A stretch of 32,000 nucleotides of DNA, from assembly GCA_030429145.1 (NCBI GenBank), contig JAUIDC010000001.1:390001-422000 (forward strand). The letters run 5' to 3'. The position numbers and the translations under genes were made by a program. The notes below the pieces were generated by a model that was not told where the DNA came from, did not search any database, and was given only the letters and a program-made list of their open reading frames with translations. This DNA is from Candidatus Saccharimonadota bacterium. Its GTDB lineage: Bacteria > Patescibacteriota > Gracilibacteria > Absconditabacterales > Absconditicoccaceae. This document shows positions 5,471 through 21,311 of the stretch, in pieces (the first letter of the stretch is position 1; each line of letters begins with the position of its first letter).

Positions 5471-7285
5471 ATGAAAAAAAGAAGTACGATAATATTTATT
5501 GCAATAATTGCTACTTTGTCGGGTATTGGTGTGATACAGTGACAGAGATGAGAAACAAAGAGTGAGGCTACTGAAAGACAAGTTTTCTTTATTCAAACAG
5601 ATCCTCTTACACAGAAGGAGTATCAGGGAACTATCACAAAAACGGCCTCTGTGAAATCGTCTAGTGATATTACGATTAATGCGCAGGTTGGGTGACGCGT
5701 AAACAATATTAGCGTTGCTTTGTGACAGAAAGTAGGAAATAAACAGCGTTTACTCTCTATGAGTGATATAGCTGGTTCATACTCATTTGGTGCGCAAAAG
5801 GCAGCTCTTTCTGTTCAGTCTGCACAAAACAATTTTGAGATAAACAGATTAAATCTAGATAAACAAATCCAAGATGCGCAGCTCGCCTATCAAAAAACAT
5901 TAGTCTCTTCACAGTCTAGCATCATCGGAGTGGGCAATTCTAGTGCTGATCTCCAGCTTCAAAAGCTAGAACAGGATTTGGCAAAAGCACGTTCTGATTA
6001 TAATGCGAAGCTTAAGAGTGATGATCAAACATTGGAAAATTACGTTAATACAGCAAAAAACGTCTACAGCGATGTGACAAATCTTATGTTAGATGTAATT
6101 GATAAATCAGATAAGTTCTTAGGATATACCAATGAAAATGCCCATTATAATAACGGATTTGAGGTCTATATTAGCGTGAAGGATGATAATGCAAGATATA
6201 TGGCAGAACAGGAGCTAGCAGAGCTTATCAACCTGAGAGAAGAACTTAAAAAGCTAGGAGACGAGATAACTTTAGACAATATAACAGAGTTTCTTTCTGA
6301 CTATAAGATGATCGTCGCGTGAATTAATGAGATGACTGTCGCAATGAAAAAAGTGCTTAACAATACTACACCAGGATGAACGCTTACTCCAGCATGACTT
6401 GATGCAGAGGTGGCAGCATTCACTACTTCGCAGACAAGAGCTAGTAGTATTTCCTCGTCTATTACCTCTCAAGTAAATGGGATAGATCTTTTCGTTACAA
6501 CATATGGAGACAATCAAAACTCTCTCGAACAACAGATAGCTTCATTGGAAACCCAGATAGCAGTTAGTAGAAGACAACTTGAAGACGCGAGTCAAAATGC
6601 TGAGATATCTCTAGAACAAAGTAGAAATAATCTCGACTTTCTAAAAAACACAAGAGATGAAAACCTTGCATCTCTTCGTAACTCTCTTGGTCAATCACAA
6701 GTTGCCTACCAAGAAGCACAGTTTAATCTGTGAAAGTTTTCCGTCAATGCTCCTATAGAAGGAGTTATCACAGAGGTTATGGTTGATGCGTGACAAGAGG
6801 TTTCTCCTGGAACGCCACTTATAAAGATGGTTTCTCAGTGAAAAGAAGTTGAGGTAAAAGTAACAGCTGATGAAAGACAGTATATTACTATAGGACAAGA
6901 GGTTCAGCTCTCTTATGAGAATACGATAGTTACTGGGCAAGTAAGTGAAATGTCGTCGGTGGCAGACAGTACGGCAAATTATACAGTAAAAATATCGATA
7001 GATGAAAAAACGCCTGTTGATATCGGAGCCTTTGTTGACGTAACTATTCCGCTCCAAGGGTGAAACAATATCATTCCTCTCAATGCGGTTACTATTGTTG
7101 ATAACAATAGAGGACAGATATTTATCTGGAATGGAGAAAACATAGAAACAAGAACCGTTACATTGGGTTCTGTCTATGGTAGTTCTATTGAGGTAGAAGA
7201 AAAATTTTCTGCCGGAGAAGAGCTTATAGTATCGGATGTTTCTCGCTATGATCCAGATAGCATGGACATCAAGAAAAGACAATAG
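5471..7285 (+). CDS. efflux RND periplasmic adaptor (HlyD/MFP family) with very long coiled-coil insert, 604 aa
   Basis: N-terminal TM segment (IIFIAIIATLSGIGVI), then a lipoyl-like half (ITINAQVGGRVNNISVALGQKVG). A long Q/L/A-rich coiled coil spans roughly nt 5760-6720. The second lipoyl half is APIEGVITEVMVDAGQEVSPGTPLIKMV, followed by beta-barrel/MP-type segments. Track ORFs 5759.. and 6410.. are in frame with ATG 5471. Eleven in-frame TGA. Confidence 0.8.
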
Positions 7286-7307
7286 TTTATTTATAGAGAT
7301 CTAGTGA

Positions 7308-10300
7308 ATGAGTGAAAAAATAAGATATTATAAAAAAAGATTGTTGAATACCTGGTTTTGACGATGGGTGAAAAATTATAGAGTTTCTTTCCTACTGATA
7401 TTCTTGTTGGTGGCGTATGGAACATTTTCACTTATTCGTATTCCGAAAGAATCAACGCCAGATATTCCTTTTGGTATTGTCCAAATAACTACAGCCTATC
7501 CGGGAGCAAATCCTGTAGATATAGACTCTCTTATCACACAAAAGATAGAGGACGAGATAAAAAACATGCCGGAAATTGACTCATTGGAGTCAAACTCTTC
7601 TCTGGGGATTTCAATCATTGCTATCACGCTCAATAGTACGGCAGACACGAAAGAGTTTATTGCGGATGTGAAAAATAAGGTAGATACTCTTGTTTTTCCC
7701 GAAGATGTGACGGATCCTAATGTGACAGAAATTTCGAGTGATAATGCGGTCCTGTTTCAGATGATGATCTACTGACCTCAAGAGAGATTTACTCTCAACC
7801 AGGTGAGATCTCTTGCTGTACAGTTGAAGAAAGAGATAAATGGAAAAGGAGATATTGTTGATGTATCTCTTTCGGGTGTTCCGTCGGATTCAGACTATGA
7901 CATAGCGGTTCTTCTTGATCAGCAAGCGCTAGAAAGCTATGGACTATCTGTTAGCCAGGTCGTTTGAGCTATCAGAAGTTACAATCAAAATCTTCCGCTG
8001 GGTAACCACGAACTGGGAGAGCTCTCTTATGACTATAGGATAGACAATGAAATTACCTCTATGGATGAGCTCAACAACATTCCTATTTCTATCAACAACG
8101 GACAAGATTACATAAAACTTTCTGAGATTACTACCATCAAAAGGGACTATAAAAATACTGCTGTCACGCGAGGCGGTGTACAAGGCTCAGCTCAAAACTA
8201 CGCAGTATCTATCACCATATTTAAAAAGAAAAGAACAAGTGTCTTCTCTGCGTCAAGTGAAGCAAAGGAGTTAATAGATAAAACATTGAAGAAACCTTTG
8301 TACGACGGACTGCAGGTAGAATATACGACCGATCTGTCAGAGATTATTATAGACGACTATAAGTCTCTTGGTATTAGTGCTCTGACATCGATATTACTCG
8401 TTCTTATGATAACGGCGCTCTTTATTGGGGTGAGGCAGTCGCTTATTGCGACTCTGGGGATGATTATTTCGTTTTTCATTACCTTTGTTGTGCTCGACCT
8501 TGCTGGTATGACGATGAACTTTTTGACCAACTTTAGTTTGATCTTAGCCTTTTGATCGGGTATCGATACTGTTATTGTGTTCATCGAGGCGGCTCGTGAG
8601 AACATGAAAAAATGATACAATCCAGCGAGTTCAATCCTCTTAGCAGTTAATACCTACAAGGCTCCAAACATAAACTCGTCGTTGACGAATCTAGTAGTAT
8701 TTATCCCTATGCTAGTGCTACCAGGTGTTACTGGAAAGTTTCTTTCGTACATTCCTATTACAATCTTTACGACGCTGCTGGCAAGCTTGTTTCTTTCTCT
8801 TACCGTAAACAATGCAATGTTTGCGAGATTCAATAAAAAATGGAACTACTACTACGAAGAGGATGAAAGCTCAGAGATGATCATGTCAGAAAATGATAGA
8901 GCACTACTTGAAGAGGAGAGAAAAGGAAAGCAGGTAAAACAAAGAACCACAGAACCTTGGTTTGAAAAATTTATCAACAAGTATGTGATAGTTCCGTATA
9001 TTCACCTTTTGAAAAAAACGCTGAGTCGTAAGCGCTGGAGAAAGTTGGCGGTGCGAGCTCCGGTTGGACTTCTTTTTCTCACATTTATTGTTCTTTCTCC
9101 ATCGATAGGATTTAAGCTTTTCCCATCGGGAGATAATCCATTTCTGAACTATGCGATAGAAGGGAAACAGGGTCAGACGACAGACTCGATGGCTGTAGCT
9201 GTATCAGGTGTGGATGCAATCATAGCAGACATCCCAGAGATAAAAACATATGAGATAAATATTAATAAGGATACGGCGAATCTTGGTTTGGTGTTGGTTG
9301 ATAAAGAAGACAGGAAAAGAGACAGCTTTGAAGTAGAAGAAGAAATATCACAGAGGCTCCACTATCTCAGAGAGATTGGATATAAGGTTGAAGGAAAAGT
9401 AGAAGCGGGTGGACCACCAGTTGGAAAGGCAATAGGAGTAAAACTTATAGCAGAAGATACCTCTCAGCTTCAGGAGTTAAAGAATGTGAGTAAGGACTTT
9501 GAAGCGTTCATAGAATCTATCACAGGTTCAGTAAATGTGACAAATTCGAGCTCTGAAAATCCTGGACAGTTCTCAGTAGCCTTTGACAAGCAAAAACTTG
9601 CACAGCTTGGACTAACTCCTCAAGACGTGCAAAGCGAACTCTATGCTGCCATCAATGGTCAGAAAGCAGGAAATATAAATCTTGAGAATACAGAAAGAGA
9701 TATCGTCGTAAAAGTAAAAACATTTGATGATGCCTTCTCTCCTGATCAACTAAGATCTCATACTATCCAAACAAGAAAGGGACCAGTAAGCGTGGCAGAA
9801 GTAGGAGAGATCTCTCTTGATCCAGCGTTGGCTTCCATCCAAAGATCAGAATGAGATCTTGCTATCACAACCGAAGCAGATCTAGAGCCGGGGTTGTCGC
9901 CAACCAGTTATCAGGCAGAACTCATAGAGTTTGCTCAACAGTACGACTTCCCGGCTGGCATCTCGTATAAAGCATGAGGAGAAAACGAAGCAAACAAGGA
10001 GCTCATACAGGCGACTATCATGGCATTTTTTGTGGCTATTTTCCTCGCGTTTATTATCTTGGTGTATCAGTTTAACTCATACAGCAAACCAGCTATTATC
10101 CTGTATAGTATCGTGACGGCACTCTTGGGTGTGAATGTGTGATTGTATGTGACAGGAAATCCGTATAGCATGGCCTTTGGTATTGGGTTTATTTCATTGA
10201 TAGGAGTGGTGGTAAATACGGCAATCTTCCTTGTAGATAGAATCAATGAGAACTTGAAGCATGGTGCGACGATAGAGAAGGCGATCATAGAAGCTGGAAC

Positions 10301-10562
10301 GGTGAGGGTGAAGCCTATTGTGATTAGTACGCTAACGACAATCCTTGGTATCGGCTCTGTTGTTACACAGGATGAGTTCTACGCGGGACTTGGTTGGACG
10401 GTCATTTTTGGTCTGCTATTTTCGACGGCGATTACGCTATTGGCGGTTCCAAATCTTTTCTATGCTGCATTTAAGAGAGGAGAAGAACGTAGAAAGAAAA
10501 AACAGTGACAGGAAAATGGTACGGCAGAATTAGATGATCAGATGGTTGCTACTGCGGAGTAA
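7308..10562 (+). CDS. RND-superfamily efflux transporter permease (AcrB/HAE-type), 1084 aa
   Basis: Five track fragments (7368.., 8061.., 8682.., 10143..) are all in frame with ATG 7308 and joined by 9 in-frame TGA. The 12-TM RND architecture is present with two large loops. TM4-like and TM10-like segments are FSLILAFGSGIDTVIVFIEAAREN and SLIGVVVNTAIFLVDRINE. With UGA as sense the ORF runs past TGA 10506 to TAA 10560-10562. Confidence 0.9.
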
Positions 10563-10576
10563 TAATACCAATGAAA

Positions 10577-10609
10577 AAAGGTCCTCATGGCGAGGGCCTT
10601 TATTTTTTT
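10577..10609. terminator. bidirectional terminator between convergent RND pump and photolyase genes
   Basis: AAAGGTCCTC-atggc-GAGGGCCTTT (one G.U pair) followed by TATTTTTTT on the plus strand and preceded by an A-run. It overlaps the photolyase stop codon (10600-10602). Confidence 0.65.
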
Positions 10610-11925
10610 GCATAGATCTCTTTTGCTTTTTTGCTTCGTTCGTAGTGATCAACAATCGGCTTGGCATATTTGAGATCGTGTTCTAGTGGATTATGAATTT
10701 CCTTGGGAGAGAAATCTTTGAGCTCAGGTAGTCGTTTTTTTATGTATATACAATCGGGATCGAACCTTTCTGATTGGCGGATAGGCGAGAAGATCCTGAG
10801 AGGCTTTGGGTCGGCGCCGACGCTTGCAGTTCGTTGTCGATTGCCAATATTTACGTTTTCATCGTAATCGAGTAGGTAATTGGCAAAGTGTTTCTCCCCT
10901 CGACGTCGGTCGATAAGCAGGTCTTTAGTAAGAAATGAAGCAACGATCATACGAACACGGTTGTGCATCCAATTTTCTTCCTTCAGCTGTCTCATCCCTG
11001 CGTCAACGATCGGATATCCGGTTTTGCCATCTTGTCGTGCCTTAAAATATTTTTCGTTATTATCCCAAGCCAGTTTCCTGCGCTTTTCGAGGAACTCAAC
11101 GAGGCGTGTTTCTGGAAAATGAAACATGATATGATGTCGAAATTCACGTCGAGCTAATTCAGAGATAAATGTCTGTGCATTTTCCTTGAGAGCTTTTTGG
11201 TAGACGTCTCTGATACTTATCAGTCCAAACCTAATATACGGAGAGAGCTTTGACGATCAGTCTATGGCAGGAAAGTTTCTTGTTTCATCGTATCAAGAGA
11301 AATCGAAATGTTGTAGTCTTTCTTGGGGGAAGGAGAGAGACCAGTGGATGTTCTCCTGGTATGAAAGTTTTGAAAATATCCCTTTTTTGTTTGGAAGAGA
11401 AATTTTTGGTGACTCTATTTTTTGAGGAGCACGGTGAACCTTTGTATATTCTTCGGTGAGGAATTTCTTCCGACGATTGAAAAAAGGAGTGAACACTTTC
11501 ATGGGCTTCACTTTGTCTATGGGAATGAGGAGAAAGTCATGAGAGGCATGACAAGCGATCTTCTTTTTGTCGCAATAGTCTTCTATCTTTTTATCTCTCT
11601 TGATTGATCATGATCCGTAGCTTTGGTTGTAAAAGATCGCGTTAATGTTGTGCTCTTTGATGAGCTTGGGAATGATTTTAGCTGGGTCTCCATATTGGAT
11701 AAGAAGATATGATCACTTTTCTTGAAGCTCTTTTTCGAGGTTGTTGATTGCCTCGATAAGAAATCAGACTCTTTTGTCTTCTTTGGGGAAGTTTTTAAGA
11801 ATGGTTTCGTCGAAAATGAAAATAGGGATAATCTCTTTGGATTGTTTAAGGGCCTCAAGCAATCATTTATTGTCGTGAAGCCTGAGATCTTGGCGGAAGA
11901 TGAAAAGTGAGCGAGGATAAATCAT
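10600..11925 (-). CDS. phr: deoxyribodipyrimidine photolyase (class I CPD photolyase/cryptochrome family), 441 aa
   Basis: 1326 nt with 6 in-frame TGA. N-terminal motif is SLFIFRQDLRLHDN. The FAD domain carries DGSSKLSPYIRFGLIS, TGYPIVDAGMRQL, NWMHNRVRMIVASFL, DPKPLRIFSP and LPEL. All standard-code Arg residues at conserved Trp sites are CGA/CGG codons (see findings). Confidence 0.88.
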
Positions 11926-13707: not shown

Positions 13708-13724
13708 GAACTATTGTTAATCGC

Positions 13725-13958
13725 TTACTTATAAATGTTTCATCTGTAGTCTATATTTATTATTTTGATTGTATTATCATGTGTCGAAAATACAATCCTG
13801 ATTTTTCAGACTCTCACTCTATATGTGCCTTTTTCTTCTTTCATCTTTTGCATATCTAATTTTTCAGTTTGCCCTCATGCAATCAAACTGAGTATTTCGA
13901 GTAGTTTGACTTGTTCTTTCAAGGATAGGCTTAAAAGGAACTTTTGTATCTTATCCAT
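13725..13958 (-). CDS. RelE/ParE-family type II toxin, 77 aa
   Basis: MDKIQKFLLSLSLKEQVKLLEILSLIAGGQ...KGTYRVRV-G-KIRIVFSTHDNTIKIINIDYR-G-NIYK matches the yRiRiGdyRiiy...i..i..RgeiY signature. It has three in-frame TGA (all Gly) and overlaps the antitoxin stop by 8 nt. Confidence 0.7.
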
Positions 13959-14190
13959 CTATAATCTTTTCTAGTTTTTGTTTTAAAACAGCTATATCAA
14001 CGCCTTCTTCTGCGTATATGCCGCGTCCGTTTTGGTCTTCATAGTAAACGACTCCATCCTTTTGTAAAGGTTTGATTAGCAATCCCTCTGGAGTTTCTTC
14101 TGCAACGAAATTATTCGTAGAAAATTTAGATCTTCGAGCCTTTGGAAGAGTTATTTGTCCTGTGTTGAATGATTTGAGAGTGTAGATCAT
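13951..14190 (-). CDS. AbrB/SpoVT-type antitoxin, 79 aa
   Basis: MIYTLKSFNTGQITLPKA[CGA]RSKF...LLIKPL carries a SpoVT-AbrB-like GQITLPK motif. It sits immediately upstream of, and overlaps, the RelE-like gene. I chose ATG 14190 over the track's TTG at 14232. Confidence 0.6.
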   Translation of the reverse strand: MIYTLKSFNTGQITLPKARRSKFSTNNFVAEETPEGLLIKPLQKDGVVYYEDQNGRGIYAEEGVDIAVLKQKLEKIIDG

Positions 14191-14316
14191 TTTTATGATA
14201 TTAATTAAATTAGTTAATTGTATTTTAAACAAGCGTTTTAAGAAAACAAGAGAAGAGTTTGTTTTTAAAAGTAGATTATCTATATATGTTTTATTTGTTT
14301 GTAAGAATAGAAGAAA

Positions 14317-14946
14317 ATGATAGAGCAGATTATAGATTGGCTTCTGTGGCTGGTTCGTGAGATTGGGTATCCAGGAGTGGCACTTTCGATGTTTATCGAG
14401 AGCTTCTTTGCACCAATTCCATCAGAGGCGATTATGCCGCTCGCTGGCTGGCTCGCGGCTGAATGAGCGATGAAAGTGCGAATTCTTGCTCTCGTCGGAT
14501 GAGTTGCTAGTTATCTTGGAACCTTGCCGTTTTACTTTCTTGGATACCGAGGCAACAGACAAAAGATCTATCGCCGGCTCGACAAGTACGGCAAGTGGTT
14601 TTTCATCAAGCCCGACGAGGTAGACACTGCATTTGACTGGTTTCAAAAGTATGGAAAATGATTTGTCTTTTTTGGTCGCCTTGTTCCGATAGTGCGTACC
14701 GTTATCTCGTTTCCTGCAGGATGTGTAAAAATGCCTTTTGTTCCATTTAGTCTTTTGACCTTGCTTGGGTCGACCTTATGGAGTGCGATCCTTGCAACAG
14801 CAGGCTACTATCTTGGAGCAAATTGGTCACAGGTTTGAGAAGCTATAGCAGAGTATGAACATGTTGTGCTTGGAGTTTTGCTAGTTGTGGTTGCTGCATA
14901 TGTTGTTTATCTCTTTCGAAATAGAAAAAAGAAGGCGTCGAAATAA
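14317..14946 (+). CDS. DedA-family (SNARE-associated/VTT domain) membrane protein, 209 aa
   Basis: 630 nt with 5 in-frame TGA. Motifs are FIESFFAPIPSEAIMPLAG, FFGRLVPIVRTVISFPAG and LGSTLWSAILATAGYYLGANW, typical of DedA. Confidence 0.8.
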
Positions 14947-14957
14947 ACCCTTCTTTT

Positions 14958-15422
14958 TTAAAATACAACGAGATAGAATGATTCTCCCTGTCGAACGATA
15001 ATTCCGCCTCCCTTTAAGTTTGGAGCCCATTCATTATAGGGCTCATCAAAGAGAAGGGTCTTTCTTCCTAGGAAGATCTTTTTATTTTCCTCGTACAGAT
15101 GGAATTCTGTTCGCAGAGGTGGTAGCCAGTTTTTCACTCCAGGAGCAAGTAGCCATGGAGAGGAACTGTTGTTCTCGTACCATAGTTTGTCTGTGGCAAG
15201 AACGAAGATTCCTCCATCGGGATTTAGCGTCCACTTAAAGAAAGGCCCCCGATAGATAAGAATTTTCTCGAAAAGGCCGGCAGTCCTGATTGCTTTTTGT
15301 AGGTCTCGGTTTCCGAGATTGGAAGATTTTCCCTTATGAAACAACACAACAGAGCCGCTGACATAGGGGATTATTCCGTCGTCTTCCATCGACTTTGTTT
15401 TGAGCTGCTTCAATAAAGACAT
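14958..15422 (-). CDS. hypothetical protein, 154 aa (no family recognised; atypical codon usage)
   Basis: Intact ATG..TAA ORF with no UGA among 15 Gly codons. Four of its six standard-code Arg codons are CGA/CGG (14991, 15111, 15249, 15306). See findings. Confidence 0.6.
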   Translation of the reverse strand: MSLLKQLKTKSMEDDGIIPYVSGSVVLFHKGKSSNLGNRDLQKAIRTAGLFEKILIYRGPFFKWTLNPDGGIFVLATDKLWYENNSSSPWLLAPGVKNWLPPLRTEFHLYEENKKIFLGRKTLLFDEPYNEWAPNLKGGGIIVRQGESFYLVVF

Positions 15423-15776
15423 TGTATATTTTTTAGTGAACTATTATTGTAGACAAGGCTGGGAATAAGTCAATGCAAACAAATCCCTTGTTATTTCCTA
15501 GGAGTTTCTTATAATCCTTGCAGATTAATAAACCTTGTATATACCAAAGACACTACAAATAGTCTTTAGCGTGATCGCTTGATAGCAGTCTGAATGTTTG
15601 GTTCAGGCAGAGCAAATAGGCTCGATAAACCACTCCTGATCACTCTACTATTTTCTTTCGGAGGACCGGTTTGTTAATCAAAGCGTGTTAAGAAGAAGTT
15701 ATTGAACAAAGAGACAATCCTCGGCGATTTCTGCTGTTTTCTTTCACATATTCATTTTTATATTTACAGACAATGA

Positions 15777-17402
15777 ATGACAACATTTAAAGATTTTGAC
15801 CTAAGGCCAGGTATACAAAAGGCTATTGATGCTACAGGATATACAGAGCCTACACAAATACAAACAGAAGTATGGAATGCTGCAAAAGAATGAAATAATA
15901 TCGTAGGACAATCACAGACAGGAACAGGAAAAACAACGGCGTTTCTCCTTCCTCTTTTACATAAGGTAGATAATAGAAAGCGTCATCCACAGGTGCTTAT
16001 TATCGCTCCGACAAGAGAGCTCGTGGTGCAGATTCGTGAGGATATCATGAAGCTTACAGAGTTTTTCCCGATGAGATCACTCGTTCTTATGGGAGGAAGA
16101 AGGCGTGAATGGCAAAAAGAAGATCTCGCTCGTGGTCCACAATTTATCGTGGCGACCCCAGGAAGATTGATTGAGTTTATGCAAGAAGGACATCTCAACG
16201 CTGACCAGATAGAGTACTTTGTCATGGATGAGGTTGATCGTATGCTCGATATGGGTTTCATCGATGATGTAGACCGAATTTGGTCGCAGCTTAAAAATCT
16301 TAAGCAGACAATGACTTTCTCAGCAACTATCAACGATGAGATTAAAAAAATTATTACAAAACACTGTAGCGACTACGAATATATACGTATCTCACCAAGT
16401 GTTACTGTCGACGCAATTGACCATACCTATATTGAACTGCCACTTGAGCACAAGTTTTCAACGCTTATGCATCTATTGGAAGGACATAAGAATCAGAAAA
16501 CAATCATTTTTGCACAGACAAAGAGAAATACAGAAACGATTACTAAAGAGATCAATAAGCATGGACATACTGCTCAGTATCTCAATGGTGACCTTGATCA
16601 ACGTCAGCGTACAAGAGCTTTGAAAGCTTTCAAAGAAGGAACATGTAAGATCCTTGTAACGACAGATGTTGCTGCGCGTGGACTTAACATGGATAATGTA
16701 GAGCTTGTTGTAAACTTCGAGGTGCCTCGTGAGCCAGAGAGCTACATTCACCGTATTGGTCGTACAGGTCGTGCTGGTGCAGAAGGAAAGGCACTTATGC
16801 TCGTTTCACCAGATGAGAAGCATCTGATGTACGACATTGAGAAGACACAGAAGATCAAGCTAGAGAAATCAGCTGATCATCAGTCAGTTGCGGATCCTGA
16901 GGGTAAGTTCACTGGTGTTAAGCTGGATGTGCCGATTCCTCCATCGGAAAAGAAAAGAAGGATGGTAGAGAGAAGAGAAAGAGGCGTTGTTTCAGGAAGA
17001 AAATGGGGAAATAGATTTAGTAGAGATGATAATAGATCAGGCGGTAGAGGTGGAAGATCTTCTGGTGGTCAAAGAGGTTGAAGATGAGCAGGTCGCCCAA
17101 GAAGAGATGATGCATGGACTTCAAGAAGTTTTGGTAACTCAGTAGGAGGCTATCAGGTTGATTCGGTTCGTGAGCAAAGATACATCCAAGAGTCTAAATT
17201 TCTCGGGAAGAAAGCTGCTGATAGATCTGGAAGAGAGTTTGATCCACATAAGGGTCGTCCAAGAAGAGAACCAAGACCTGGTGACTCATTCATTGGAAAC
17301 GATCGCCCAAGAAGATCTTCAGGACCGAGAACATCGAGAGGTCCAAGGACTTCAGCCCCAAGAGGAGCTGGTGCGAGATCAACGACAAGAGGAAAGAGAT
17401 AA
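15777..17402 (+). CDS. DEAD-box ATP-dependent RNA helicase with Arg/Gly-rich C-terminal tail, 541 aa
   Basis: Starts at the second ATG (15777), because the first (15773) hits TAA after 5 codons. Motifs: Q-motif region, AKE-G(UGA 15891-15893)-NNIVGQSQTGTGKT, PTREL, TPGRL, DEVD, SAT, ARGLN, HRIGRTGR. Reading through TGA 17079 adds a 107-aa RG/RP-rich tail ending at TAA 17400-17402. Confidence 0.9.
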
Positions 17403-17466: not shown

Positions 17467-17543
17467 TGGAGGCACCAGTGGGATTCGAACCCACGATCGA
17501 AGGCTTTGCAGGCCCCGCCGTTAGACCACTCCGGCATAGTGCC
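17467..17543 (-). tRNA. tRNA-Cys (anticodon GCA), 77 nt with encoded CCA
   Basis: The reverse complement folds as a cloverleaf. Acceptor stem GGCACTA/TGGTGCC, anticodon stem GGGGC/GCCTT, loop CTGCAAA (GCA), T-arm GTGGG-TTCGAAT-CCCAC, discriminator U73 and a 13:22 mismatch. The last two are both typical of tRNA-Cys. Confidence 0.9.
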
Positions 17544-17592
17544 ACGTGCAGGCAACAATACTGATTTTCATTTCATTATCAATCTGCTTTCT

Positions 17593-17621
17593 AAAAATGC
17601 CCCCGGAAAATCCAGGGGCAT
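17593..17621 (-). terminator. rho-independent terminator of the T9SS-CTD protein gene
   Basis: On the minus strand: ATGCCCC-tggattttcc-GGGGCAT followed by TTTTTAG, 23 nt after the TAA at 17644-17646. Confidence 0.6.
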
Positions 17622-17643
17622 TGTTGTATCAGGTTGCTTGTTT

Positions 17644-19095
17644 TTATTGCTTGATAATTTTTCTATTTACTGTGCTTCCATCTGCAAGCTTAAGCTTAAG
17701 AATATAAGCGCCACTAGCGAGACGATAGAGCGTCATATGCTGTTCTGTTGTCCCATTGCCAGGTATCTGGCGGACGGGATAGCCCGTCATATCTATGATA
17801 GCTCCTGCTACGATAGGGCTGGGAGTCTGAACGGTAAACACATCGCTTGTTGGATTTGGGTATACTATGGTTTCGTTTGTACCGGCAGAAGGGCGATAGA
17901 TTGCTTCGACCTCTGTGGTTGGAACTGAAACATTGAGTATCCAAACCTTTGCCTTGTTGTTTCCAGAACCAAACATGGTATAGTGACTGTTTTGATAGAA
18001 GCCATTGATTCGTTCTATCCCAGGGCCGTCATTGATGACGACAGAGTCGTCCAAGCCAGGAGCTGTGTTTACAAGCCACACTACGAGAGGCCCTGTGTTC
18101 TCAATCGCAGACCAAAGGAAGTAGTTATCCCTTACAGAGGTTGCTTGAAATCGGTCGGGGCTGTTTGCTGCGAAGTATACATCATCAATCATGTTTACGG
18201 GGCCGGAGAGATTGTCTCCATGTGTAATAGCAATATTGCCATATGCCGTAACGGAGCGATTGATGTATATGGGAGCCGCATTGCTTGTTCCGGAGGTAAA
18301 ACTGTAGGGAGCGTAGAAGCCAACGAGCACAGGAGATGTTCTGTCAACTATCTGCCTGATGCTTTTGCCGTTGGACTTATCTGTAGCCATGATAGTAATG
18401 GTAGTGTCCTGTTTCACGTAATCTGTTACGACAGCTCCAGCTGTGTTTATCACGAAGTAGCGATCACGATAACTTAGCGAAGCATCGTGCTTGCGCTTTT
18501 CTATGTAAACTCCCGCTGGGTCGGTATAAAGCAGATAGTGTGCAGTGTCGTCACTGACAATGCCTGCGTAACAGTTACAGGAAGGATCCTTGGGCGAACC
18601 AAAACCAACATCGTTGGTCGTTATAAATCCTATCTTGTGGGTGTTCACAGACGTACCCTGGTTGTAGTGTTTTGCTAACACTGACATTCCCCAGTCGGCC
18701 TTGCCGACCTTTAGCCCTACATAAATGTCATTGGTCACATTTGACTCTCCGGCTTTTATCACCGTCAGACTTGAGCCAGTCTTTTTTAGGCTTTGCAGCT
18801 TCAGCTGGTGGTCTGTCATGATGGCAATAGTTACATCGGCTCCTTTGCTGTTTATAGCGGCGCCAATGATGTTCTCAGTGAATGTCTCACTGTAGAGCGG
18901 TGTGCCATGACAATTTTGGTCGACATAGGCAATTTTTAGTTCTTTTCCACTTGCCATAAGGACATAACCATCTTTTGACATGTCCAGAACGCTCTGTCCA
19001 GAGCTGTCCGTATAGGTGCAGTGTTGTTTGATGCTTTGTGCAAAGACAGAGCTGCAGCAGAGCAAAGTTCCTGTTAGTAAAAGTAAACGTTTCAT
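17644..19095 (-). CDS. secreted protein with N-terminal signal peptide and C-terminal T9SS type-A sorting domain (Por_Secre_tail), 483 aa
   Basis: Signal peptide MKRLLLLTGTLLCCSSVFAQ. The C-terminal ~75 aa (IVYPNPTSDVFTVQ...IIDMTGYPVRQ...LYRLASGAYILKLKLADGSTVNRKIIKQ) match the vYPNP..d...v...i.d..G......l..l..G.Y.l.....g....Kl.k consensus. About 50% GC in three hand-counted lines, and intact in the standard code. Confidence 0.85.
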   Translation of the reverse strand: MKRLLLLTGTLLCCSSVFAQSIKQHCTYTDSSGQSVLDMSKDGYVLMASGKELKIAYVDQNCHGTPLYSETFTENIIGAAINSKGADVTIAIMTDHQLKLQSLKKTGSSLTVIKAGESNVTNDIYVGLKVGKADWGMSVLAKHYNQGTSVNTHKIGFITTNDVGFGSPKDPSCNCYAGIVSDDTAHYLLYTDPAGVYIEKRKHDASLSYRDRYFVINTAGAVVTDYVKQDTTITIMATDKSNGKSIRQIVDRTSPVLVGFYAPYSFTSGTSNAAPIYINRSVTAYGNIAITHGDNLSGPVNMIDDVYFAANSPDRFQATSVRDNYFLWSAIENTGPLVVWLVNTAPGLDDSVVINDGPGIERINGFYQNSHYTMFGSGNNKAKVWILNVSVPTTEVEAIYRPSAGTNETIVYPNPTSDVFTVQTPSPIVAGAIIDMTGYPVRQIPGNGTTEQHMTLYRLASGAYILKLKLADGSTVNRKIIKQ

Positions 19096-19143
19096 ATATT
19101 TCTGGTTTTATTTTAATGATCGTGCCCAATATCGGGCAGAAAG

Positions 19144-19171
19144 ATTGTATACGAAATGGGAAATAAGTCAA
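19144..19171 (-). promoter_or_regulatory. sigma70-like promoter candidate upstream of the T9SS-CTD gene
   Basis: Minus strand: TTGACT (19171-19166), 16 nt, TACAAT (19149-19144). A TGCCC-gatatt-GGGCA hairpin follows in the leader. Confidence 0.35.
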
Positions 19172-19172
19172 C

Positions 19173-19847
19173 CTATTGTGAAGATCTTCTCACAATGACA
19201 ATCGGAGTCATTTCATCATTCTGACCCATTGGATTGTCTAGGAGGACGAGGCGAACTGTTGCTTTGTCGACAGGCATAGACTTTGACATGCCCAAGACTT
19301 CGACATTGATGTTGTTGCCGTCGATAATGGCTGCGGGAACTCAAAATCTGTCTTCTATGTCCTGACAGAACTTGTCAGCATTCGCTGGTCAAATCATGGC
19401 AAACTCGTCAAACGGAGCCATGGCATCTGGGTTGAAGCCGTCTATTTCTGAAATTCTATTGCCAGCTATGCGGTAAAAATCTCCACGTCTGCCAAGTAGT
19501 CTTGTTATTCCTCCGAGGATCATAGCAAAGAAAACTCTCCGTCGCCCTGCTTGCATGATAGCGACCTGCATCTTGCGGGGGTGAGAGTAGCCAATATCTC
19601 ACTTATGTTTCGTAACACCTTTTACTACTAGTTTTGCAAGCCATCCTGGTTGGATAACAGATTCGTGGACGACTCTTCCTTGTGAAATAGTGACAACCTT
19701 TTCTGAAATTGCAATTCGGTCACCTGGTTGCAGGAGCGGGTTCACATACTTTTCGATAAGTGGATCAAACGATTCTTTGATGTGAATCATATGAGTCTTT
19801 ACGCAAATTCTTTCGTAATTTGCTCCGTTAACCTCTTTGAGAGACAT
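19173..19847 (-). CDS. gamma-glutamyl ligase (CofE / F420-0:glutamate ligase-like, PF01996-type) family protein, 224 aa
   Basis: Track ORFs 19599..19847 and 19389..19571 plus a third segment are in one frame, joined by TGA at 19599, 19389 and 19341. The motif PLLQPGDRIAISEKVVTISQGRVV is typical of the family. Ends at TAG 19173-19175. Confidence 0.6.
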
Positions 19848-21005: not shown

Positions 21006-21311
21006 ATGGCAGACAAAAAGAATATTGAGATCTCATCAGATTTGTATGATGCGATCCAGCAACTAAAGTCTATCTTCAGTGAAATGAGCGGAAAGCCAAT
21101 CGAAAAAGATGAAGATGTTCTTTCTATCCTCGTGTCAGGATTCATCGATAGCGTTATGCAAGAGCAAGAAGGTGGTAACGGTGAGGACGATGAAGAAGGT
21201 GAGGACGATGATGATGAATCTGAGTCCGGACACCATCATAAGCACGGTTGTGCTTGTGGTGGTAACTGCAACTGTGACAAAGAAAGCTGCGGCTGTGGTC
21301 ACGGGCACTAG
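21006..21311 (+). CDS. small acidic protein with His/Cys-rich metal-binding-like tail, 101 aa
   Basis: ATG 21006 is in frame with track ORF 20949... It begins MADKKNIEISSDLYDAIQQLK, continues with a poly-acidic linker (GEDDEEGEDDDDESES), and ends in the tail GHHHKHGCACGGNCNCDKESCGCGHGH. Followed by a terminator. Confidence 0.6.
   Translation: MADKKNIEISSDLYDAIQQLKSIFSEMSGKPIEKDEDVLSILVSGFIDSVMQEQEGGNGEDDEEGEDDDDESESGHHHKHGCACGGNCNCDKESCGCGHGH

Follow-up and report, generated by a model that had tools for sequence, protein, structure and literature searches.

Type A cargo of the type IX secretion system (T9SS) of Bacteroidota and the wider Fibrobacteres-Chlorobi-Bacteroidetes (FCB) group follows a simple plan: a signal peptide, a functional domain and a C-terminal β-sandwich of ~75 residues that carries YPNP...G.Y...K..K motifs. 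The gene considered here, an open reading frame (ORF) for 483 amino acids in a 32,000-nucleotide (32-kb) stretch of contig JAUIDC010000001.1 (the window, taken at its full length), encodes a protein of just this plan, a predicted secreted β-propeller that ends in a T9SS-type C-terminal domain (CTD). It differs from known cargo in its surroundings. The family to which it belongs is encoded in genomes of the candidate phyla radiation (CPR) type, in which UGA means Gly and CGR (CGA or CGG) means Trp; to our knowledge, no T9SS is expected in such a cell, and no T9SS component was found among the proteins of the window or of the related loci, fetched with 10 kb on either side; and the propeller has no homolog outside the clade. 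The gene is thus CTD cargo of a known kind; its setting and its coding are new.

The code itself has been described. Reassignment of UGA to Gly together with CGA/CGG to Trp was predicted for Absconditabacteria (Shulgina and Eddy, 2021, eLife, PMC8629427), and the native genes of the window obey exactly that code, whereas two gene families in the same genomes deviate from it; at 40%, the GC content of the genome here slightly exceeds the values of 0.26-0.38 reported for the reassigned clades (PMC8629427). The nearest precedent for the deviation is a group of TGA-free phages of Gracilibacteria and Absconditabacteria, compatible with codes 11 and 25, whose genes end with other stops and can be read in either code; some of them are also targeted by Bacteroidetes spacers (Liu et al., 2023, mBio, PMC10746230). 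Like these phages, the family genes combine the absence of in-frame TGA with a non-TGA stop (TAA), and are dual-code compatible in the same sense. Two of them (L083 3841-3849 and L086 9936-9944) end with TAA-TAG-TGA in tandem, which resembles the clustered different stops of the phages. Unlike the phages, the family genes are single-gene chromosomal units at a fixed locus, among housekeeping neighbors and with no phage genes nearby, and their anomaly also spans the CGA/CGG sense reassignment, which PMC10746230 does not address. No match to the family was found among PHROGs, by tblastn against phage records or among viral contigs. A third comparison, made from general knowledge, is with hypervariable surface-protein (antigen or cassette) loci: conserved flanks, divergent alleles, incongruent trees, tandem paralogs and a promoter and terminator for each unit are common to both, but no recombinase, repeats or silent-cassette archive was seen here. 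In the literature, we found neither a report that connects T9SS sorting domains to Gracilibacteria, Absconditabacteria or Patescibacteria nor a description of chromosomal standard-code genes in these groups.

Codon use of the family and of its neighbors

Which code does the cell use? The window belongs to a UGA-sense genome, whose ORFs are long only when TGA is read through, and its native genes use UGA for Gly and CGA/CGG for Trp. In the photolyase gene (10600-11925, minus strand), seven of the ten CGA/CGG codons align to Trp of PDB 1owl and one more to Tyr. In alignments of eleven flanking gene families from ten related loci, TGA fell in Gly columns (n=312; mean BLOSUM score to G, +4.5), while CGA (n=83) and CGG (n=63) fell in Trp columns (mean BLOSUM scores to W, +9.0 and +9.9). 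Both results agree with a first-pass annotation of this DNA, made from the letters alone, which had considered that CGA may be Trp in this cell; residue 362 of the 483-residue protein, which occupies an Arg-majority column, would then be Trp. Reassigned codons are also common: CGA/CGG account for ~37% of codons in the Trp columns of the flanks, a heavier use than in most genomes of the 2021 code screen.

The propeller-CTD family is written by other rules. Not one of 393 Gly codons in 11 distinct genes is TGA, compared to 12% in the flanks, and every gene ends in TAA; restricted to Gly-majority columns, the count is 0/169 in the family vs. 244/2016 in the flanks (p = 2e-9). Trp-majority columns contain 16 TGG and no CGR in the family vs. 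221 and 132 in the flanks (p = 9e-4), and the four Trp-rich columns of the unmasked alignment hold 24 TGG and one CGA. CGR codons are found instead where Arg is expected, in 5 of 33 positions of Arg-majority columns vs. 1 of 1396 in the flanks (p = 3e-8) and in 8 of 208 positions of R/K-majority columns vs. 3 of 2738. The 37 CGA/CGG codons of the family fall in polar or basic columns, with mean BLOSUM scores of -2.2 to W, -0.1 to R and +0.1 to K for CGA, and of -2.8, +0.6 and +0.6, respectively, for CGG. Two conserved Arg columns read CGC CGG AGG CGT CGT AGG CGC CGA ... and CGA CGT CGG CGC CGT ..., the mixture that four-fold degeneracy for Arg would produce.

A leave-class-out control, in which column profiles were built for each codon class and scored to R, K, W and Y, gives the same answer. 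The CGR class (R +0.25, K +0.35, W -2.5, Y -1.4) has the profile of the true Arg classes, AGR (AGA or AGG; R +0.21, K +0.59, W -2.7, Y -1.6) and CGY (CGC or CGT; R -0.18, K +0.16, W -2.4, Y -1.1), and is unlike TGG (R -1.6, K -1.4, W -1.6, Y +0.5). Neither mark of native code usage, CGR in Trp columns or TGA in Gly columns, is present in the family (scores to W are -2.2 to -2.8, and TGA is absent), whereas a native glycosyltransferase family that evolves equally fast (47-51% identity) keeps CGR in its Trp columns. Nor is this the residue of a recent arrival. Identity at four-fold degenerate sites is 0.22-0.34 in the family (chance, 0.26), fully saturated, and 0.34-0.44 in the flanks (chance, 0.27), near saturation; because synonymous sites are saturated, the pattern represents an equilibrium, and a lack of amelioration after recent transfer is ruled out. 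The coding of the family follows standard-code rules. The suggestion that this gene is written unlike its neighbors is borne out more strongly than it was made, since the whole family avoids UGA and places CGA/CGG as if they were Arg.

Bulk composition says much less. The ORF has a GC content of 46.1% (47.6% at third codon positions), the highest among 27 tabulated ORFs and above the window mean of 40.2%, but the other 25 genes average 40.5% (standard deviation, 3.3; maximum, 45.3), which gives z = 1.7, and 7 of the 24 60-nt lines of the ORF reach 50%; the GC contrast drawn in the first-pass annotation had the right direction but was overstated. The closest allele, at L001, has the GC content of its contig (41.7 and 41.5%). 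Codon choice differs from the flanks for Arg and Gly and is similar for other amino acids: CGY makes up 46% and AGA 21% of Arg codons in the family, whereas AGA accounts for 51% in the flanking native genes overall, the DEAD-box helicase gene included. Recounting reproduced exactly the 39 Gly codons without TGA and the Arg codons (five CGC, three CGT, two each of AGG, AGA and CGA) reported earlier for the ORF, and placed both CGA codons where they had been put (Table 1).

The anomaly extends to a second gene, an orphan encoding 154 amino acids. It contains no TGA, its CGA/CGG codons align to R, N, E or K, and its Trp columns use TGG only; the protein is 34-36% identical to its orthologs at L084 and L086, and a word-indexed search detected no homolog.

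The secreted protein and its chromosomal slot

The CTD is recognized by two curated models, PF18962 (39.2 bits over residues 411-481; cut-off, 27) and TIGR04183 (33.7 bits over residues 411-483 of 483; cut-off, 23), at the extreme C-terminus of the protein. An AlphaFold2 model computed with a 13-sequence alignment (predicted local distance difference test score, pLDDT, 84; predicted template modeling score, 0.72) consists of an all-β propeller followed by a β-sandwich CTD, with seven strands between residues 410 and 482 in an immunoglobulin (Ig)-like arrangement (block pLDDT, 80-92); with two sequences, the model was unusable (pLDDT, 44.6). The YPNP...G.Y...K..K motifs are retained across full-length members, the exceptions being the fragments P0011 and P0013, and full-length relatives share the architecture of signal peptide, ~390-residue domain and CTD. 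The first-pass annotation is upheld in its call of a 483-residue ORF with a T9SS type A CTD and in placing an FCB/Bacteroidota-style sorting domain inside a recoded CPR-type genome. Its Sec signal peptide stands as a reading of the sequence: a hydrophobic N-terminus ending in AQ is common to 11 of 13 family members (P0007 and P0011 lack it), and residues 2-16 form a helix in the model.

The propeller has no match to any Pfam, NCBIfam or PHROG family. Its best Foldseek hits (PDB, BFVD) are Cdc4 (1nex_B), PALB2 (3eu7_A), DDB1 and the BT4673 sensor domain, all generic WD40-type propellers, and therefore no specific function can be assigned. A word-indexed protein search returned the gene itself and one relative at 46% identity; an exhaustive profile search of 1.84 billion (1.84e9) representatives with the propeller part as query found 13 relatives only and no homolog outside these recoded genomes. 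The propeller alignment, with search patterns taken from the N-terminus only, had no match in metagenome_contigs or viral_contigs. A search with the CTD profile recovered no donor; the nearest CTDs outside the family are short fragments, just 27-36% identical.

Where do the relatives reside? Genomic contexts were retrieved for P0002-P0005 and P0007-P0011, while none was usable for P0006 (on a 1.8-kb contig) or P0013; every relative with readable context lies in a UGA-recoded genome. Related UGA-fragmented genomes share the order FemAB / CofE-like / [family gene(s)] / tRNA-Cys / DEAD helicase / TP-methylase / photolyase / resistance-nodulation-division (RND) pump, and eight of the nine relatives on contigs long enough to show neighbors, the gene of the window excluded, occupy the same slot between the CofE-like gene and tRNA-Cys; one member is found at a different locus of another recoded genome. 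The slot is filled in about ten related genomes (L001, L083, L084, L086/87, L089, L093, L095 and L096) and empty in two close relatives, L003 and L004 (OZ246420.1 and JAGOPC010000001.1), where CofE, a terminator, the tRNA-Cys promoter and tRNA-Cys follow one another and no remnant of a family gene is present. The synteny comparison proposed at the outset found relatives that lack the gene and more that carry it.

The alleles have diverged far beyond their surroundings. Flanking proteins are 80-90% identical between genomes, alleles only 20-46%, and the allele tree is incongruent with that of the flanks: the loci with the closest flanks (L084 and L089, 89.7%) hold alleles that are 25% identical. 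At L086 (8430-9938 and 10001-11527; also at L087 and L090), two tandem paralogs in one genome share just 24% identity and have separate promoters and terminators. The copy at L096 (9870-11390) is broken by two frameshifts, the first in a seven-C run just past the signal peptide, and may be a pseudogene, a case of slipped-strand phase variation or a sequencing error. At L093 (7000-9580), ~2.4 kb of extra sequence separates the CofE-like gene from the family gene, which shows that the slot accepts other content. A diversity-generating retroelement was considered as a source of variation and rejected: there is no reverse transcriptase nearby, divergence is protein-wide, and such mutagenesis would also create TGA.

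Each allele appears to come with its own expression signals. Nine of the 11 family genes examined share a TTGACTTAT...TAYAAT promoter, a 5' stem-loop, a ATCATTAA motif that hardly varies, an A-rich leader that lacks a Shine-Dalgarno sequence and a terminator of their own. The promoter is of the same type as that of the native pilT gene, and native genes likewise lack Shine-Dalgarno sequences; a Bacteroidota-type promoter (TAnnTTTG), also considered, was not found. In the 5' untranslated regions (UTRs) of L001, L083, L084, L088, L089 and L093 the stem-loop keeps its position while stem sequences differ; each fold is weak alone (z-scores, +0.1 to -2.8), RNAalifold found no consensus among the 5' UTRs, where MAFFT failed to register the short hairpins, and an Rfam scan returned two tRNAs and nothing else. 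Together, the stem-loop and the ATCATTAA motif probably constitute an mRNA-stabilizing or regulatory element. The flanking genes, the σ70-like promoter and the terminator named in the first-pass annotation were all found in place (Table 1).

Table 1. Coordinates of the propeller-CTD gene, its signals and selected neighbors in the window
Feature	Position	Strand	Remarks
ORF, 483 aa + TAA stop	17644-19095	(-)	One allele of the hypervariable secreted β-propeller/CTD family
Signal-peptide-like segment MKRLLLLTGTLLCCSSVFA/QS, Sec-type	19036-19095	(-)	Residues 1-20 (...VFA/QS); by eye from sequence
β-Propeller domain	17920-19035	(-)	~Residues 21-392; AlphaFold2 + Foldseek
T9SS type A C-terminal sorting domain	17647-17865	(-)	Residues 411-483; PF18962, TIGR04183
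CGA codon, residue 315	18151-18153	(-)	Family column variable, polar (K, C, N, D, D, R, K, G, N, T)
CGA codon, residue 362	18010-18012	(-)	Arg-majority column; Arg-coding alleles together use all four CGN (CGA CGT CGG CGC CGT ...)
σ70-type promoter of the family gene, TTGACT-16-TACAAT	19171-19144	(-)	Begins 2 nt past the CofE stop codon
Small 5' UTR stem-loop	19122-19139	(-)	Followed by the ATCATTAA motif (19106-19121), then an A-rich leader without Shine-Dalgarno
Rho-independent terminator of the family gene	17593-17625	(-)	Hairpin (inverted repeat I1) + T run
tRNA-Cys(GCA)	17467-17543	(-)	Downstream neighbor; Rfam 17470-17543
tRNA-Cys promoter, TTGATA-16-TATTGT	17555-17582	(-)	
CofE-like gene (F420-0:gamma-glutamyl ligase family)	19173-19847	(-)	Native upstream neighbor; PF01996; uses TGA = Gly, CGA = Trp
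154-aa orphan gene	14958-15422	(-)	Second gene with coding anomaly; 2 kb from the family gene; no known family
154-aa orphan promoter, TTGACTTAT...TACAAT	15446-15473	(-)	

Several neighbors deserve mention in their own right. Genes for an HlyD-type membrane-fusion protein and an RND (ACR_tran) transporter adjoin at 5471-10562 (+), and the window holds no outer-membrane factor. Two small ORFs at 13708-14200 (-), judged by eye, resemble a RelE/ParE-type toxin (...GTYRVRVGKIRIVF...) and an AbrB/SpoVT-type antitoxin, a probable toxin-antitoxin pair. A DedA/VTT-family membrane protein is encoded at 14317-14946 (+) and shares 85% identity with its counterpart in L001; an ORF called at 13951-14646 (-) was discarded as mostly a shadow of the DedA gene on the opposite strand. 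The interval between the DEAD helicase and the TP-methylase varies by genome, with a pilin-like gene in L001 and a VTT gene in L095. A small acidic protein (21006-21311, plus strand) is rich in His, Cys and Gly, ends in ...HHHKHGCACGGNCNCDKESCGCGHGH and contains no Arg or Trp codons of the reassigned kind.

Resident, native or recently acquired?

The pattern and its equilibrium state stand as described above; exchange or selection in a standard-code context and translational selection with tolerated Arg-to-Trp changes are candidate causes. The ORF is a resident allele of a clade-restricted, hypervariable, independently transcribed propeller-CTD family in an Absconditabacteria-type clade, and we would give even chances to the following account, in which it is kept readable in the standard code. 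The family has long occupied the interval between the CofE-like gene and tRNA-Cys. Each allele is a transcription unit of its own, most likely strongly transcribed in the CPR cell because it combines a near-consensus σ70 promoter and a 5' stem-loop with an A-rich leader and an intrinsic terminator, and its product is predicted to be exported via Sec. CPR cells of this group are episymbionts or predators; the propeller may present a binding surface at the cell or host interface, and the extreme divergence of the alleles next to well-conserved flanks would fit an arms-race or antigen-like role. Since no T9SS is expected in the cell, the CTD may act as a surface-anchoring Ig-like domain or, alternatively, offer a handle to the T9SS of an FCB-type host. 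An FCB-type source with the standard code probably contributed the module, long ago and not recently, and its readability would have been kept by continuing selection or exchange in a standard-code context; code-11/25-compatible mobile DNA shared with standard-code bacteria is a possible route.

Could the gene be simply native? Under this alternative, which we regard as rather unlikely, it encodes a very highly expressed, rapidly evolving surface protein from which translational selection has purged UGA-Gly and CGR-Trp, and the CGA/CGG codons that remain are genuine Trp codons that arose from Arg codons (CGY or AGA) where the protein surface tolerates change. Many of the same observations tell against continued standard-code readability. 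Reassigned-codon use varies strongly among native genes, as the DEAD-box helicase (15777-17402, plus strand, and its orthologs) demonstrates with 4 CGR vs. 39 TGG in Trp columns and 12 TGA vs. 377 GGN in Gly columns; the small acidic protein has no TGA in 71 Gly codons across nine loci. The native-type promoter, near consensus, and the leader with its stem-loop argue for simple expression in the CPR cell, with CGA/CGG read as Trp; usage of most other codon families is close to that in the flanks; and single TGG codons are likewise present in variable, polar columns of the family. Arg-majority columns supply few counts (five CGR), and because CGY becomes CGR by one third-position change, recent Arg-to-Trp changes would also land in Arg columns; the CGR share of replacements there, 5/14, exceeds only modestly a purely mutational expectation estimated at ~25%. 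Most relatives come from protein sets called in the standard code, a bias toward TGA-free members; the L091 member, whose gene calls evidently treat UGA as sense (TGA-containing neighbors are called full-length), is TGA-free too, as is the frameshifted L096 copy. Searches recovered no family member from a standard-code genome, a phage or a plasmid, which leaves an external standard-code pool hypothetical, and propeller function and CTD use are inferred only. What the native explanation fails to accommodate is the distribution of CGR. Selection that holds Trp columns at 24 TGG to 1 CGR should purge CGR elsewhere, yet CGR makes up ~45% of would-be Trp codons (37 vs. 46 TGG) and ~4% in conserved Trp columns. 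Arg- or R/K-majority columns contain 13 CGR and no TGG, although the transition from CGG to TGG would then be synonymous and synonymous sites are saturated; among replacements in Arg columns, CGR stands to all others as 5:9, compared to 1:146 in the flanks; and the CGY-rich Arg codon choice is unlike that of the flanking genes, the DEAD helicase among them.

The first-pass annotation had favored a recent, single-gene horizontal transfer from a standard-code host or prey donor at a tRNA-Cys hotspot. The standard-code-like codon usage, the T9SS CTD, the slightly raised GC content and the empty slots at L003 and L004 would all suit such an event, but we now consider it highly improbable: the same slot holds deeply diverged alleles in about ten genomes, with saturated synonymous sites, so that neither "recent" nor "single-gene event" can be retained, and the donor clade it called for did not materialize in searches that found no homolog beyond the recoded genomes. 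The hotspot fares no better. tRNA-Cys follows the family gene at all syntenic loci, and the gene sits on the 5' (promoter) side of the tRNA, upstream of its promoter, not at the 3' end; no direct or att-like repeats flank it, no integrase is encoded in the window or at the fetched loci, and the native-type promoter and UTR are common to most alleles. An assembly chimera of Bacteroidota DNA and a CPR contig, which the foreign-looking domain and coding might have suggested and which had been named as a way for the transfer idea to fail, has almost no probability left: a contig of a second assembly (Logan ERR3428547, 127,872 bp) matches the window with 100% identity over 21,452 bp that include both junctions, and in independent samples this gene order recurs with different alleles.

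Two further proposals attribute the coding to a host. In the broader one, which strikes us as improbable, a few chromosomal genes (the propeller-CTD family and the 154-residue orphan) are actively kept in the standard code because their products are made in, or repeatedly pass through, standard-code hosts that bear a T9SS; host-directed expression or shuttling on dual-code-compatible mobile DNA are possible routes. The narrower one holds that the family and the orphan stay standard-code through products made in a T9SS-bearing host, or selected by their function there, with T-DNA genes that carry host-type signals as the proposed analogue; this we judge to be very improbable. Standard-code coding and the combination of signal peptide and T9SS CTD are both conserved over a long divergence, as it would require, and the group, by general knowledge, is episymbiotic or predatory with no T9SS expected; the A-rich leader without a Shine-Dalgarno sequence also points this way, but native genes lack that sequence too. 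The promoter is canonical σ70 rather than Bacteroidota TAnnTTTG, and no transfer machinery or mechanism is known or seen.

Implications for code barriers and host interfaces

Altered genetic codes are thought to isolate a lineage from gene exchange. In this doubly recoded bacterium, one or two rapidly evolving genes seem to have long been readable in the standard code, and one of them bears the secretion signal for a machinery that the bacterium should not have. If the host-linked reading is true, these genes would form a genetic-code "island" that marks the host-parasite interface, a reading that would be categorically new; if translational selection is responsible instead, reassigned codons carry a measurable cost in these genomes. 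Should the pattern prove genome-wide, it would (i) allow genes that act where CPR parasites meet their hosts to be recognized from sequence alone; (ii) provide a direct test of the strength of the code barrier; and (iii) hint that the hosts are T9SS-bearing bacteria of the FCB group.

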